A DNA stretch of 64,000 nt from positions 22,224 through 86,223 of IMG/VR virus record IMGVR_UViG_3300022468_000772, one strand, 5' to 3'. Position 1 is the stretch's first letter, and each line of letters starts with the position of its first letter. The stretch comes from a virus. Lineage: Duplodnaviria > Heunggongvirae > Uroviricota > Caudoviricetes. The notes below the pieces were generated by a model, which searched no databases, had not been told where the DNA came from, and saw nothing but the letters and a program-made list of their open reading frames with translations. Shown here piece after piece: positions 4,426-53,108 of the stretch. A program made the translations under genes and the position numbers.

Positions 4426-5376
4426 ATGACCTTAGAAGAAATTATCAAAGACCGCCTGAAAGCAGCAACAGCACAATTGTCTGAAGCTAAAAAGCCTGAA
4501 GAAGTGAAGGCAGAAGAGCCAAAAGAAACTGCTGAAGACAAAGGTGTAGAAGATACTGTTTCTACATCAGTTAAAGCTGATAAGAAGCCTGTGAAAGAAG
4601 AAGTTGCTGAAGTGTCTGCACCAGAAGTGACAGAAGCTAAATCTAGCGTGTCCAGCCAAGTGTCTGCACTGTTGGAAGCCGAAGGTCTTTCCGATGAATT
4701 TAAAACCCAAGCAGTAACTATTTTCGAAGCTGCTGTGGCTGATCGCGTTCTTTCTATTCAGGAAGAAATGCAAAAAGAATTTGATGCTCAATTGGCAGAA
4801 GCTAAAGAGCAATTGGATAATGATATTGATGAGTTTTTGAGTGAAGCCGTTGCCCAATGGCAAAAAGATAATGAAGTAGCAATCAAAACTAACTTTAATA
4901 CCCAAGTGACAGAAAGTTTTATGGATGGATTGCGTTCGCTTATTGCTGAACACAATATTGAAGTCCCTGAAGGTAAAGAAGATGCTTTGGCTACTGCCCT
5001 GTCAGAAGTTGAATCTTTGAAAGAATCGTTTAAAGAACAAGAAGCTGCTCAAGCTGCATTGCAAGAACAAATCAAACAGTTCGAAAGCAAGGCATTGCTC
5101 GAATCCTTCCGTTCCAAAATGACCGTTGTGGAATATGACCGCTTCGTTCAATTGACCGAATCTATCAAATTTGAAACTGCTGAACAATATGAAAAACAAC
5201 TGACTATTGTGCTGGAAAACTTCGGTTCTGCAGCAAAGAAAGTTGCGAAGCCTGTTGTAGAAGAAGTGACTGAAGTTGCTGTTGAAAAGACTGTGGTTGA
5301 ATCCAAAGTTGATCCTCGCATGGCAATGTATGTCTCTGCTTTGAAGACTGGTTCTGCAAAATACACCAATAGTTAA
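4426..5376 (+). CDS. gp22: Prohead scaffolding protein
   Basis: Acidic coiled-coil, FKTQAVTIFEAAV, between gp21 and gp23. Confidence 0.9.
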   Translation: MTLEEIIKDRLKAATAQLSEAKKPEEVKAEEPKETAEDKGVEDTVSTSVKADKKPVKEEVAEVSAPEVTEAKSSVSSQVSALLEAEGLSDEFKTQAVTIFEAAVADRVLSIQEEMQKEFDAQLAEAKEQLDNDIDEFLSEAVAQWQKDNEVAIKTNFNTQVTESFMDGLRSLIAEHNIEVPEGKEDALATALSEVESLKESFKEQEAAQAALQEQIKQFESKALLESFRSKMTVVEYDRFVQLTESIKFETAEQYEKQLTIVLENFGSAAKKVAKPVVEEVTEVAVEKTVVESKVDPRMAMYVSALKTGSAKYTNS

Positions 5377-42988: not shown

Positions 42989-43378
42989 ATGACTGATAAA
43001 AATGTAGATACAACGTATCCATACCCAACGGGCGGTGTGCCATCGATTAGCGCTGGTGGTGTCAGTTCGCGTGAGTATATCCCAACACGTGACGGTACAC
43101 CAGTGCATGTTAACGGTTGGGTGGATAATGTGATTAATCTGAAGACATTCGATAAACGCGCACACAACCACTATTTCAAAGATGTTTCGAAACTGGATTT
43201 CATTGATGTGTATCGTGTTCTGCAGTTGTTTGCTGTGAATGATCCCTGCATTCAACATGCAGTGAAGAAACTGCTTGTTGCCGGTGGTCGCGGTGCTGGC
43301 AAAGACATCAAAAAAGACATTCAAGAAGCTATCGATTCATTGACTCGTTGGCAAGAAATGCAAAAAGAAAATGGCTAA
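42989..43378 (+). CDS. Hypothetical, DUF3310-like C-terminal domain
   Basis: NHYF, IQHAVKKLL...GKD..KDIQEA. Confidence 0.5.
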   Translation: MTDKNVDTTYPYPTGGVPSISAGGVSSREYIPTRDGTPVHVNGWVDNVINLKTFDKRAHNHYFKDVSKLDFIDVYRVLQLFAVNDPCIQHAVKKLLVAGGRGAGKDIKKDIQEAIDSLTRWQEMQKENG

Positions 43379-43907
43379 ATTTAACAATGTGATGCTCGAC
43401 TTGGAAACCCTTAGCGAAGTACCTACTGCTGCAGTAGTCGCTATCGGTGCTGTTGCTTTCAATATGGAAAATGACAGCGTTGCCGAGTTCTATATAAACG
43501 TCGATCCACGTGACTGTAAAGAGTACGGTATGGATATCTCTGAGAGTACCGTAGCATGGTGGCGTAAACAGAATCCAGAGGCTACGAAGGCGTGGATAAC
43601 CGATGCTGTGAGCGTTGTAGAAGCAGGGACAAAGTTTGTAGAATTTATGGAGGAACACACCGATAAACAGACCGTAAATGTCTGGGCTAACGGTATCGAC
43701 TTCGACTTACCTATCCTGAAGAATTTGCTAAAGGTGATTAAAGCGCAGCCATGGTTATTCTGGAATCAATATGATGCACGAACTATTTTTAAACTGGCAA
43801 AGTTTGACACTAAAACTGCTTCACGGGTTGGTAAATATCACAATGCTTTGGATGATTGTAATAATCAAATAAGATGGATTAAGAGTATCGTAAATGGAAC
43901 ATCTTGA
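43371..43907 (+). CDS. 3'-5' exonuclease (DEDDh, Rv2179c-like)
   Basis: VMLDLETL, WANGIDFDLPIL, D.RT, HNALDDC. Confidence 0.85.
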   Translation: MAKFNNVMLDLETLSEVPTAAVVAIGAVAFNMENDSVAEFYINVDPRDCKEYGMDISESTVAWWRKQNPEATKAWITDAVSVVEAGTKFVEFMEEHTDKQTVNVWANGIDFDLPILKNLLKVIKAQPWLFWNQYDARTIFKLAKFDTKTASRVGKYHNALDDCNNQIRWIKSIVNGTS

Positions 43908-50291: not shown

Positions 50292-50510
50292 ATGAAAAAT
50301 ACAAAATACTTTTGGAAAGAAGTTCCACTCAAAGCTGATATTGAGCGGCACCGTAAACAAGAAAAAGAAATTCAAGATAAGATTGACTTGCTTGAGTCGA
50401 TTGTTGAACCAACAGAAATGCAATTGAGAACACTTGCTACATATCGAAATTTTATGTATCAACTGCAACTGTCTAAAGCAGAAGTTGTTTCTAAGATTGG
50501 TAAGAAATGA
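50292..50510 (+). CDS. Hypothetical coiled-coil protein
   Basis: Behind 38-bp promoter repeat. Confidence 0.65.
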   Translation: MKNTKYFWKEVPLKADIERHRKQEKEIQDKIDLLESIVEPTEMQLRTLATYRNFMYQLQLSKAEVVSKIGKK

Positions 50511-50863
50511 CACCACTGAATAAATCTTTTATTGGTGCCGCGAACACCAAACGTGCAAGTCTAAACGCTATCTTGATTCGCTCAAAAATTGACAAAATTG
50601 TCTATCCATCGTTCCATTTAGTGGAACGTATGGTTGAGCGAAATATTGATGTTGTCGATGTTGCACGGATGACTGTGCCAATTGTCAAATACTTTCGAGA
50701 AACCACATTCAACGACAGAAGCTGTTTAGTTCTGTGGCGCGACCTGAAGCTGGCGGCTGACATTCGGATTGGAACCGTTACTGGTAAACGTTCGATTATT
50801 TTGAAAACCATTGTTGATGATGTTTCTCGAAAAACTTTTGATGAAACGTTCAAAATCGAATAA
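50507..50863 (+). CDS. Hypothetical, possible DUF4258/BECR-like fold
   Basis: SFHLVERMVERNI motif. Confidence 0.45.
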   Translation: MTPLNKSFIGAANTKRASLNAILIRSKIDKIVYPSFHLVERMVERNIDVVDVARMTVPIVKYFRETTFNDRSCLVLWRDLKLAADIRIGTVTGKRSIILKTIVDDVSRKTFDETFKIE

Positions 50864-50907
50864 AACCGTGTTATAATTCAGTCATCGAAATTCAAAAGGT
50901 AAACAAA

Positions 50908-51144
50908 ATGACTACATTCATCACTTCTTACAGCCAGTTGAACAATGGTGATCGTATTTCTTATGAATCTAATTGTGGTACACTAACTGCCACTGTGAGT
51001 CACATTCGAATCGGTAAGAATGGTCTTGGTAAGATGGTTCCATTTTTGGGCCTGAATGTTGATGCAAAGAATGGTCGCAAGGCACATCGGCTTGAATTGC
51101 TTGGTGGTAATTCTTTGCCTATGTACAGAATTCAGAAACTGTGA
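50908..51144 (+). CDS. Hypothetical protein
   Basis: Behind 38-bp promoter repeat. Confidence 0.65.
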   Translation: MTTFITSYSQLNNGDRISYESNCGTLTATVSHIRIGKNGLGKMVPFLGLNVDAKNGRKAHRLELLGGNSLPMYRIQKL

Positions 51145-51159
51145 TAGAATAAAGAAAAC

Positions 51160-51235
51160 GCACCAAGTCATCTAGAGGCAAGGATACGTACCCGTCTTGT
51201 GGTCGCAACGTAGGTTCGAATCCTACCTTGGTGCA
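51160..51235 (+). pseudogene. Degenerate tRNA-Asp(GTC)-like gene
   Basis: GCACCAAG/CTTGGTGC, Asp/Glu-type D arm and T arm; anticodon stem poorly paired; no CCA. Confidence 0.5.
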
Positions 51236-51267
51236 TTTAACAAATTGATAATGAAAAGGAAAATATT

Positions 51268-51915
51268 ATGAGCGAAAAACAATTGATCAGTGTGACACGT
51301 GCTTTGGCTTTGTTGAAGCAAACCGACGAGCGTATTCAGCGCGCAATGAGCGACAAGTTCATTGATGTGTCTGTTGGTAAGGGTAAGAACCGCCGTGTTC
51401 AGCGTGGCGGTAGCGATACAGTTGATGTGGTCGAAAAGAACATTCAGTCTGCTATCGACTCCGTGCGTGATTTGCTGTCTCGCCGTGCAGCTATCAAGGC
51501 AGCTATCGTTGCTTCGAACGCAAAGACTGGCCTGACTGTTGCCGGTGAATATGTGACTGTGGCAGAAGCTATCGAAATGAAGCGTTCTGTTGAGTTCAAG
51601 CGTCAACTGGTTAACGCCATGAAGACACAGTATCTTCAGGCTAACAATACAGTTGCTACTCTGAATGTGAAGGTGGAAGCAAGTATTGATGCTATCATCA
51701 ATACCATGATGGCTTCTGATAAATCTACAAAGGTCGATCCTTCGGTTTTGGCTGCGATTGGTGAACCCCAACGCAATCAAAGTGAAGCAGCTTTGATTGA
51801 TCCTGCAAATCTGTCTACCTTCATCAAGAAGTTGGAAGACGAGATTTCCGAGATTGACACCGAACTGGATTTCTTGTTGAGTGAAATCAACGCGAAGACA
51901 CATATTCTGGTATAA
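51268..51915 (+). CDS. Coiled-coil protein, DIP1984-like
   Basis: RALALLKQ.DERI, AAI.ASNA.T, TVAEAI, LSEINA.T pattern; AAGGA RBS. Confidence 0.6.
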   Translation: MSEKQLISVTRALALLKQTDERIQRAMSDKFIDVSVGKGKNRRVQRGGSDTVDVVEKNIQSAIDSVRDLLSRRAAIKAAIVASNAKTGLTVAGEYVTVAEAIEMKRSVEFKRQLVNAMKTQYLQANNTVATLNVKVEASIDAIINTMMASDKSTKVDPSVLAAIGEPQRNQSEAALIDPANLSTFIKKLEDEISEIDTELDFLLSEINAKTHILV

Positions 51916-51919
51916 ATAA

Positions 51920-52185
51920 CATTTCAACGTCCTAGGTGAACAGTCTAAGATGACCTTTCGAGCAGAGAGAATCAAAACATCTGCAACTTTGCTTAAAAAG
52001 TACAAATTAAATCTGGAACTTCAAAATTCAAAGATCAAAGTTTATGCTTCAAAGTTTAAGTTTTAAGTTTTAGAATATCATGTTTTAAAATTGAAAGTTA
52101 AAAGGTCTTCAAATCCTGATCAACGGTTTTATGGTGCTGGAGTCGCACCTAGATTGTACCGCAGGCTGCTTAGTGGGGTTGAAAT
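51920..52185 (+). ncRNA. ~265-nt structured RNA with central 7-nt periodic tract
   Basis: Terminal stem ATTTCAAC/GTTGAAAT, inner CTAGGTG/CACCTAG; TATAAATA at 51911. Confidence 0.6.
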
Positions 52186-52186
52186 T

Positions 52187-52271
52187 GGGAGAGTGGCGGA
52201 ATAGGTAGACGCGCCGGTTTAAGAAGCCGGTACCGTAAGGTGTGCAGGTTCGATTCCTGTCTCTCCCACCA
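52187..52271 (+). tRNA. tRNA-Leu(AAG)
   Basis: GGGAGAG/CTCTCCC, loop TTAAGAA, variable arm, A73, CCA. Confidence 0.88.
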
Positions 52272-52278
52272 AATTTAT

Positions 52279-52351
52279 GCGGGTAAGCTAGAGGTTAGTC
52301 GCCAGCCTTCCAAGCTGTGCAGAGTGGAGTTCGATTCTCCCTACCCGCTCA
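52279..52351 (+). tRNA. tRNA-Gly(TCC), incomplete CCA
   Basis: GCGGGTA/TACCCGC, loop CTTCCAA, ends TCA. Confidence 0.8.
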
Positions 52352-52736
52352 TGATTATAATAATCAGACATCGAAAATACAAAAGAGGTAATTATGGCAA
52401 ACCATGGATTCAAATTATGTGGTAATTTTCCATACAAATTTATGGCATATTCACCATCCGACCCTTCCAAAATGGGATTGGGTTTCACTGATATGTTATC
52501 TGCTCAGAGACACTGTAACAAATGAACAGTCTTATTGAAACTGAGCCGGAAATATTTGATGTGCAGCATTGGGGTACTGATAAACCAGAAAAGTGGATTG
52601 CAGAACAATTACCGTGAATAAGAGTTCGCATAGCACGATATGGTGATTATGCGAAAAGTTCCTCAAAAATTCATGTAGAACTGGCAAAATCTATGTTATA
52701 ATTCATTCATCAAAAACACAAACGAGGTAACGAATT

Positions 52737-53108
52737 ATGGCCTACATGTCTCAACAACAAAAAGCTGCTATGTCTCCCGCTATCAAGGCTGTGCTGAAGA
52801 AGTACAATATGAAGGGTACTATTGCAGTTCAACATAAGTCTACTCTTGTTGTGAATATCAAATCCGGTAAACTAGATGTGATGGGTGAAACAACAGGTTG
52901 CCAAGGTCGCAAATATATTAGCATCAACCCTTACTACCTGAAAAATAATCATCAAGGTGACACATACTTCTTTTTGAAAGAGTTGATTGCTGTTATGAAT
53001 GATGGTAACTACGACAACAGTGATGTCCAGACAGACTATTTTGACACTGGTTGGTATGTTTCTGTTAACATCGGCTCTTGGGACAAACCTTACACTGTGG
53101 TGGCTTGA
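52737..53108 (+). CDS. Phage hypothetical protein
   Basis: Promoter-leader repeat; DNSD.QTDYFD.GWY. Confidence 0.75.
   Translation: MAYMSQQQKAAMSPAIKAVLKKYNMKGTIAVQHKSTLVVNIKSGKLDVMGETTGCQGRKYISINPYYLKNNHQGDTYFFLKELIAVMNDGNYDNSDVQTDYFDTGWYVSVNIGSWDKPYTVVA

Follow-up and report, generated by a model that had tools for sequence, protein, structure and literature searches.

The 64,000-nucleotide (nt) stretch of DNA analysed here (the window) is part of the 198-kb IMG/VR virus record IMGVR_UViG_3300022468_000772 and contains a large cluster of transfer RNA (tRNA) genes, comprising 15 tRNAs as called by ARAGORN. Within the window we describe a cassette consisting of a gene for a 215-amino acid (aa) protein and a structured RNA that begins 6 nt past the stop codon of that gene and carries an array of 7-nt units. 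The RNA ends one base before the start of a tRNA-Leu gene (52187), and 271 non-coding bases separate the protein gene from this tRNA. The gene and its downstream RNA constitute a pair that is inherited together across phages and bacteria. An initial annotation of the locus had coupled a helical protein of this length with a downstream structured RNA bearing a 7-nt periodic tract, and the open reading frame (ORF), the folding energy (z = -2.84) and the covarying helices described below bear this out. The coordinates of all features are collected in Table 1.

Evidence for the pairing comes from 80 viral loci encoding homologues of the protein (30-53% identity), all of which have a common architecture directly past the stop codon. 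A covariance model of the 3' domain of the RNA (R1, comprising AAATCC, the helix P5, GGTTT, a hairpin and GGCTG) has a single match in each of the 80 viral loci, invariably downstream of the gene and on its strand, and likewise in 65 of 80 bacterial loci, none of which was used in building it. Where R1 has no match and enough downstream sequence is available, the heptamer tract and the closing stem are still detected. These counts agree with the earlier expectation that homologous genes would each be trailed by a covarying, periodic RNA. The window copy scores 42.7 bits (E = 2e-5; 52097-52181), being itself one of the 32 training rows of R1, and close relatives outside the model score 38-43 bits. 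At E <= 0.01 the model misses the copies in phages T5 and EPS7, though both are visible by eye; in T5 (NC_005859, locus L083), where the homologue is gene T5.085, the RNA occupies an unannotated 363-nt gap (43142-43504) past this gene. The window copy belongs to the family by its closing stem, its split heptamer array, its R1 3' domain and its position 3' of a gene of the protein family PHROG 1491; its length of 265 nt compares with 320-470 nt in relatives.

The stretch downstream of the gene is non-coding, because close relatives of the window (loci whose protein is 73-93% identical) preserve only 31, 17, 33 and 15 aa of its one sizeable ORF of 38 aa (51950-52066); coding by this ORF is thereby ruled out. 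The 271-nt stretch folds below its shuffles (-66.5 versus -52.8 +/- 4.8 kcal/mol). These relatives share 73-93% DNA identity in the protein gene but 95-100% identity in the RNA core. The window RNA has no match in Rfam, either across the whole window at the gathering threshold or across 51100-52420 at E <= 10.

Secondary structure was derived from an alignment of 32 dereplicated RNA copies (A2) with RNAalifold, a covariation scan, and shuffled and slid controls (300 shuffles). The closing stem (P1) comprises 14 pairs that are 98% canonical against a shuffle maximum of 74%, with 117 doubly changed cells and slid partners reaching 55% at most. P5 falls into two segments, P5a (5 pairs, 98.7% canonical, shuffle maximum 82%) and P5b (3 pairs, 94.8%, shuffle maximum 79%), and is crossed by the 4-pair pseudoknot P2 (A2 columns 25-44 / 619-623; 92% canonical, shuffle maximum 84%, 19 doubly changed cells). 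For P1, P5 and P2 alike, the canonical fraction is higher than in every one of the 300 shuffles and in every slid control, and compensatory changes are numerous. A 7-pair hairpin in the 5' domain is 87% canonical (shuffle maximum 66%). The first ~30 and the last ~90 nt of the RNA together form a pseudoknotted core, in which P2 crosses P5 and to which the hairpin P4 also belongs. A pairing of the GAAAACC box with GGTTT was superseded by the better-covarying partner at A2 columns 619-623.

Substitutions in close relatives follow this map within the window RNA itself. P1 terminates in a family-wide G.U pair (G51938.T52167) beside two boxes, GCTG and one of the GAAAAC type. In L086, a U.G pair of this stem becomes C-G through a T-to-C substitution. 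In L084 a change of T52154 to C converts a G.U pair of P2 into G-C, and the P5 pair C52124-G52161 becomes U-A. The hairpin P3 shows a compensatory A-to-G with T-to-C in L084 and L089; P4 reads GGTGG / CCACC in L002, and L084 and L089 preserve its pairs via wobble changes. Three inverted repeats had been noted previously, and all are present: ATTTCAAC (51921-51928) with GTTGAAAT (52178-52185), CTAGGTG (51932-51938) with CACCTAG (52146-52152), and GACCTTT with AAAGGTC (52101-52107). The second pair is not supported as a closing helix, the role previously supposed for it; by covariation, CCTAGGTG belongs to the extended closing stem, CACC to a local hairpin and TAGATTGT to the pseudoknot, and the substitution in L086 that improves P1 would break a CTAGGTG/CACCTAG helix. 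The third pair is a candidate helix that would enclose P3 and the array; neither of its strands varies among close relatives (L002 has one mismatch), and it is lineage-specific, with no equivalent in the wider family.

Between these structured ends lies the heptamer array. Autocorrelation of 52006-52110 at a lag of 7 nt is 0.56, against 0.316 +/- 0.048 in 1000 dinucleotide shuffles (shuffle maximum 0.51; z = 5.1), and at a lag of 14 nt it is 0.55. Scored against a heptamer matrix drawn from the family, with consensus N-T-Y-A-A-A-G (N-U-Y-A-A-A-G in the RNA), the window tract contains 11 non-overlapping units of at least 3 bits, separated by steps of 14, 7, 7, 14, 7, 7, 22, 7, 7 and 10 nt; the best are TTCAAAG (52027 and 52048), ATCAAAG (52034), TTAAAAG (52098) and TTCAAAT (52108). 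When the whole 198-kb genome is scanned with this matrix, the top two in-phase arrays (24.4 and 18.2 bits) both fall in the tract, the next (14.8 bits) is the tract's own opposite strand, and the best elsewhere reaches 13.7 bits. The 7-nt periodicity noted at first is therefore real and belongs to the only strong heptamer array in the genome, and a regulon of further arrays, considered as a candidate, was rejected on the same scan. CRISPR was set aside from the beginning, and with good reason, as CRISPR arrays combine 24-48-nt repeats with unique spacers whereas the 7-nt units are contiguous and spacer-less.

The arrangement of units is itself a family character. In the 32 copies, 187 of the 303 inter-unit steps measure exactly 7 nt and another 27 measure 14 nt; the median number of units is 11, and the typical layout is seven units, a hinge of 16-20 nt and then four or five units. 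The window array fits this plan, with some units degenerate and its hinge at ~52069-52083. That the units are conserved in both number and arrangement favours a complex with a defined stoichiometry over an open-ended coat. RNAalifold and the covariation scan found no covarying pairs inside the tract in alignment A2, and a helix between the first unit, CTGTAAAG, and a TTTTACA box was dropped, its 3' side varying while its 5' side is constant.

One reading of so close an association between gene and RNA is that the latter is simply a cis-acting 3' untranslated region (UTR) or processing element, which stabilises or times the mRNA or organises cleavage of a tRNA precursor, with the tract a mere spacer and no stable particle formed. 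At most loci the RNA does begin only 5-45 nt past the stop codon, with no promoter or terminator between, and it often abuts a tRNA. In the window, sigma-70-like sites occur at chance level around the cassette and there is no terminator-like site in 50400-53000. The stop codon sits within TATAAATA (51911-51918), and this overlap had been taken for a late promoter; the overlap is genuine, but a T4-type late promoter is rejected on both frequency and conservation, the octamer occurring 4 times in the window against 3.07 expected and being altered in relatives L088 and L089. However, distant lineages would not all keep a spacer in 7-nt phase, with one consensus and one layout of 7 + hinge + 4-5 units, and the core is a conserved pseudoknot that is more conserved than the gene. 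Furthermore, locus L054 retains the RNA, 284 nt downstream, despite a small lipoprotein-like ORF separating it from the protein gene. We therefore consider a purely cis-acting role improbable.

A fragment of this RNA is already catalogued. RAGATH-27 (RF03100; gathering score 76.1 bits) matches the first ~86 nt of the RNA in relatives (97 bits in L060, 80 bits in L004; sub-threshold in L035, L013, L024 and L053), for which reason we regard it as a fragment of the heptamer-array RNA. It is a peripheral domain specific to certain lineages, and no match to it is given by the window copy, by the close relatives of that copy, by T5 or by the six bacterial copies that were tested. RAGATH-27 was described as a candidate motif of unknown function in a comparative survey of 2017 (PMC5737381). 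It lies at the same position as the 5' end of the heptamer-array RNA, directly past a PHROG 1491 gene, and its Rfam model consists of a conserved 5' stretch and one hairpin, without the closing stem, the array or the 3' pseudoknot domain. There is no protein partner on record for RAGATH-27, and our literature search returned no paper on RAGATH-27, T5.085, phrog_1491 or YP_006913. New here are the model of self-association, the structure specific to the window, the 5' UTR mini-array described below and the layout of 7 + hinge + 4-5 units.

The window protein is assigned to PHROG 1491 (phrog_1491) at E = 2.9e-57. This family carries the label 'tail fiber protein', which no evidence in our analysis backs. 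It is large: a profile search recovered 3384 homologue clusters at 50% identity, 1428 of them at E <= 1e-30, and the best 150 matches are 203-228 aa long and all aligned end to end. By tblastn, homologues are present in 733 phage records, among them T5-like, Felix O1-like and rV5-like phages, SPO1-like Bacillus phages, phage G, jumbo phages, and Lactococcus and Vibrio phages, with hosts both Gram-negative and Gram-positive; on the bacterial side the module occurs in cyanobacteria, Bacteroidota and Bacillota. The protein belongs to no Pfam, NCBIfam or PADLOC family (NCBIfam being scanned to E <= 1), and a PADLOC match to JetC is noise only. A resemblance to DIP1984 had been suggested from motifs and is not supported: besides the absence of a match to the window protein in NCBIfam or Pfam, the model NF038048 matches one of 26 family members, at E = 0.045 and amid noise, and the structure of DIP1984 from C. 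diphtheriae (3kdq_C), another helical bundle, appears weakly at Foldseek rank 48 (E = 0.47, template modelling (TM) scores 0.25/0.34).

An AlphaFold2 model of the protein, with a mean predicted local distance difference test (pLDDT) of 78.9, consists of a helix, a beta-hairpin and a second helix. The best Z from the wide VIA-align search, 9.3, is within the chance range for helical proteins, and a sequence-profile search of the PDB returned nothing below E = 0.27. Atlas gave a weak prefoldin-like lead (TM 0.37) and DUF6847 (TM 0.61/0.72), and an AFDB entry named 'Septicolysin' stood at Foldseek rank 16 (E = 0.13); the latter two are helical bundles. These results bear on a further suggestion, that gene and RNA are a type III toxin-antitoxin-like pair in which a repeat RNA neutralises a toxic protein. 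A repetitive RNA beside a small protein gene recalls such systems, and phages can carry or mimic ToxIN-type repeat RNAs. However, the units here are 7 nt and not about 36 nt (~34-45 nt in such systems), ToxIN repeats precede the gene whereas this RNA follows it, and neither a ToxN/AbiEii-like nuclease fold nor a PADLOC family was found. The RNA also has a large, non-repetitive, pseudoknotted scaffold, and strictly lytic phages, T5 among them, have retained the pair. The RNA-antitoxin component of the original proposal is thus not supported, and we judge a relationship of this kind very improbable.

Modelling does support a second part of that proposal, namely that the protein oligomerises. A four-copy model of the window protein gives an interface score (interaction prediction score from aligned errors, ipSAE) of 0.43, against 0.06 for the best control. 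This mark is reached by 20 of 30 proteins solved as same-chain pairs and by 1 of 23 single-chain structures, a calibration that used two copies whereas the window protein was modelled with four. In three runs, agreement extends to at least 87% of contacts, with a partner pLDDT of 77 or more. The modelled interface is two-fold symmetric, with strand 32-36 pairing with strand 173-177 of the partner, so that the predicted assembly is a two-fold symmetric dimer and not a filament. The model supports self-association as a symmetric dimer.

A pointer to what the protein might bind is found upstream of its own gene. At many loci, three to five in-phase heptamers lie in the 60 nt before the start codon, the last of them entering the Shine-Dalgarno sequence. 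Using a matrix derived from the RNA tracts, we scored three in-phase heptamers in these 60 nt; 20 of 29 dereplicated loci rank within the top 5% of 60-nt windows from their own locus, and 14 of 29 within the top 1%. The maximum among 132 control gene starts (other genes bearing a Shine-Dalgarno site) is surpassed at 13 of 28 dereplicated loci (Mann-Whitney p = 2e-7). The signal recurs in at least six or seven separate clades, as well as in several bacterial lineages. Since the same heptamers cover the ribosome-binding site of its own gene, the protein is pointed to as the heptamer binder. The simplest reading of these leaders, drawn from sequence comparison, is that surplus protein represses its own translation, as a trait of the family from which the window is excepted.

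We propose that the protein gene and its dedicated structured RNA form a two-part cassette on one transcript, the products of which assemble into a protein-RNA particle; we put the probability of this reading at roughly one half. The self-associating dimer would bind the heptamers and so build a particle of defined stoichiometry on an RNA scaffold, one possible arrangement being that dimers link one arm of the array to the other. Surplus protein would, in many lineages, bind the mini-array over its own ribosome-binding site and shut off its own translation, in a manner analogous to ribosomal proteins and TRAP. Cleavage by RNase P at the abutting tRNA-Leu probably makes the 3' end of the RNA. 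A function in translation or in tRNA biology during infection is suggested by the habitual location of the cassette within phage and mobile tRNA arrays. A fuller version, in which the cassette represents an unrecognised class of ribonucleoprotein (RNP), with a pseudoknotted scaffold on which dimers zip together arms of seven and of four or five heptamers, with feedback at its own ribosome-binding site and with an action on translation or tRNA metabolism, we advance tentatively.

Several observations weigh against a protein-RNA particle. The protein is acidic to neutral, with an isoelectric point (pI) of 6.6 in the window, of 5.1-6.6 in 23 of 26 aligned family members and of 7.05 and 8.4 for two others, and no RNA-binding domain is recognised in it. 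Comparisons of its fold, by Foldseek with the PDB and AFDB clusters and by wide VIA-align, return generic helical bundles only. In the model, the dimer interface alone would leave ~11 sites unexplained. The mini-array is missing from the 5' UTR of roughly half of the lineages, among them the window itself (score about -4, p = 0.18), and the A/U-rich leaders could be ordinary translational enhancers. Finally, the loci counted throughout are dereplicated but not phylogenetically independent.

Some of these features would also suit a decoy, in which the A-rich, single-stranded array titrates a host RNA-binding protein or ribonuclease (of the S1/Hfq type, or an endonuclease acting on A/U-rich single strands) and the neighbouring protein chaperones or protects the RNA without reading the heptamers. 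CsrB and RsmZ are known sponge RNAs with many short sites on a structured scaffold, which the many evenly spaced short sites here resemble; the acidic protein without an RNA-binding domain would fit such a role, and the tRNA arrays in which the module resides are themselves thought to counter host attack on translation. Yet a module that spans phages of Gram-negative and Gram-positive hosts, cyanobacteria, Bacteroidota and Bacillota would require a universal host target, and the one-to-one linkage with a single protein family, together with heptamers at the ribosome-binding site of that family's own genes, is simpler if the protein binds. Hence a sponge appears unlikely to us, and we favour the protein-RNA particle.

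Table 1. Coordinates of the cassette, the elements of its RNA and the adjoining tRNA features in the window.
Feature	Position	Strand	Basis and remarks
tRNA-like sequence	51161-51234		Upstream of protein gene, directly adjoining; Rfam tRNA, 34 bits, above gathering score
Protein gene, 215 aa	51268-51915	+	ORF listing; TAA stop codon at 51913-51915
Full non-coding RNA, 265 nt	51921-52185	+	Alignments A2 and A3; compact, divergent family member
P1 closing stem, 5' strand (ATTTCAAC, then TCC, TAGGTG with bulges)	51921-51938	+	Family covariation
P2 pseudoknot, 5' strand (ACAGTCTA)	51940-51947	+	Window version of the family 'GAAAACC' box
GACCTTT, able to pair with AAAGGTC (52101-52107)	51952-51958	+	Complementarity; candidate helix
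P3 hairpin (GCAGA / TCTGC, 13-nt loop)	51962-51984	+	Compensatory changes in relatives
Heptamer array, ~11 units	52006-52114	+	Periodicity and family matrix
P5, 5' strand (CCTG 52115-52118, internal loop, CGG 52124-52126)	52115-52126	+	Family covariation
P4 hairpin (GGTGC / GCACC)	52133-52149	+	Changes in relatives
P2 pseudoknot, 3' strand (TAGATTGT)	52150-52157	+	Within the region enclosed by P5
P5, 3' strand (CCG 52159-52161, CAGG 52162-52165)	52159-52165	+	Followed by the conserved GCTG box
P1 closing stem, 3' strand (TGCTTA, GGG, GTTGAAAT)	52167-52185	+	Family covariation
tRNA-Leu (AAG)	52187-52271	+	ARAGORN and Rfam; adjoins the RNA

The cassette usually lies inside tRNA arrays, in phages and in cyanobacterial chromosomes (up to 24 tRNAs within 4.6 kb in the latter). 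The window and 5 of ~15 other loci examined have a tRNA that begins within 7 nt of the RNA 3' end. A link to one particular downstream tRNA is ruled out, the neighbour varying among Leu, Ile, Met, Gln, Ser and Ala, with Leu common. In Sporosarcina, gene and RNA stand alone between unrelated genes, with an intrinsic terminator and no tRNAs nearby, from which it follows that the gene-RNA pair is a unit that is kept. The example from the chromosome of Sporosarcina sp. ANT_H38 (L105, 2631-2970) sits between genes for a LytS-type histidine kinase and an acetyltransferase, with no tRNAs within 2 kb, an arrangement common to many Sporosarcina species.

Other RNA features were seen in the vicinity of the cassette. 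In the window, the tRNA-like sequence upstream of the protein gene, in which ~15 nt replace the normal anticodon stem-loop segment, is not called by ARAGORN, and a second, weaker one (52279-52349; 27.1 bits against a gathering score of 29) begins 8 nt past tRNA-Leu (AAG), with TCC at the anticodon position. A nucleotide search of phage records with this region matched the flanking tRNAs only. In T5, the annotated 'stable RNAs of unknown function' (RNAX, RNAI, RNAIII and others), among which the heptamer-array RNA does not figure, lie elsewhere in the same tRNA region. Locus L054 (454-863, 3136-3400) has a tmRNA gene upstream of the cassette, and L053 has a RAGATH-36 RNA (103 bits) and a sub-threshold type-P1 twister ribozyme (43 bits), at 1446-1573 and 803-857, likewise upstream. 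A group I intron-like match below threshold (40 bits) lies just past the RNA in L024 (3652-3859), which also has a sub-threshold match to drum RNA (5208-5307; 35 bits). The phage tRNA cluster beside the cassette in L014 includes an ARAGORN tRNA (4801-4875) with the anticodon CTA, amber-reading and labelled Pyl.

Few uncharacterised gene-RNA cassettes of large phages and bacterial tRNA arrays are as widespread as this one, and public catalogues hold only an 86-nt fragment of its RNA and a protein mislabelled as a tail fibre. Were the particle model correct, it would represent a new way for a protein to read RNA, in 7-nt units on a scaffold, and it may explain part of the role of phage tRNA regions beyond the supply of tRNAs; the proposed RNP class, if real, would be present in a model phage and in thousands of protein lineages. 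As T5 carries the cassette, binding, stoichiometry, autoregulation and phenotype are all testable in a standard laboratory system.

Among known systems, one that is close in logic is TRAP of Bacillus, an 11-mer beta-sandwich ring that reads (G/U)AG triplets in a regulatory leader. The likeness, offered as an analogy, lies in the reading of short, evenly spaced single-stranded repeats by an oligomeric protein and in translational control through repeats over a ribosome-binding site (the trp leader and the trpG and trpE starts; similarly HutP). It extends to logic only, as the window protein is helical and modelled as a two-fold dimer, with no 11- or 12-mer beta-sandwich ring, and the units, for which binding is inferred, are heptamers in an array set within a pseudoknotted scaffold RNA downstream of the gene. 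CsrA/RsmA with CsrB/RsmZ, and feedback by ribosomal proteins, offer a second parallel, a multi-site RNA combined with mimic sites over the Shine-Dalgarno sequence of the protein's own mRNA. Here, however, the sites are heptamers and not GGA in hairpin loops, RNA and protein form one cassette, and, unlike CsrA/RsmA, there is no sign of a regulon, because no other heptamer arrays were found in the 198-kb genome. ToxIN-type systems also place a repetitive RNA beside a protein gene, and they differ in repeat length, gene order, protein fold and the non-repetitive scaffold. GOLLD and ROOL are large, ornate RNAs of phages and prophages, often found near tRNAs, that form RNA-only cages (bioRxiv 10.1101/2024.12.08.627333). 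Like them, the heptamer-array RNA is an elaborately folded non-coding RNA that travels with phage tRNA clusters; it differs in being much smaller, in having no Rfam match to either, and in possessing a dedicated protein gene and a simple repeat array.

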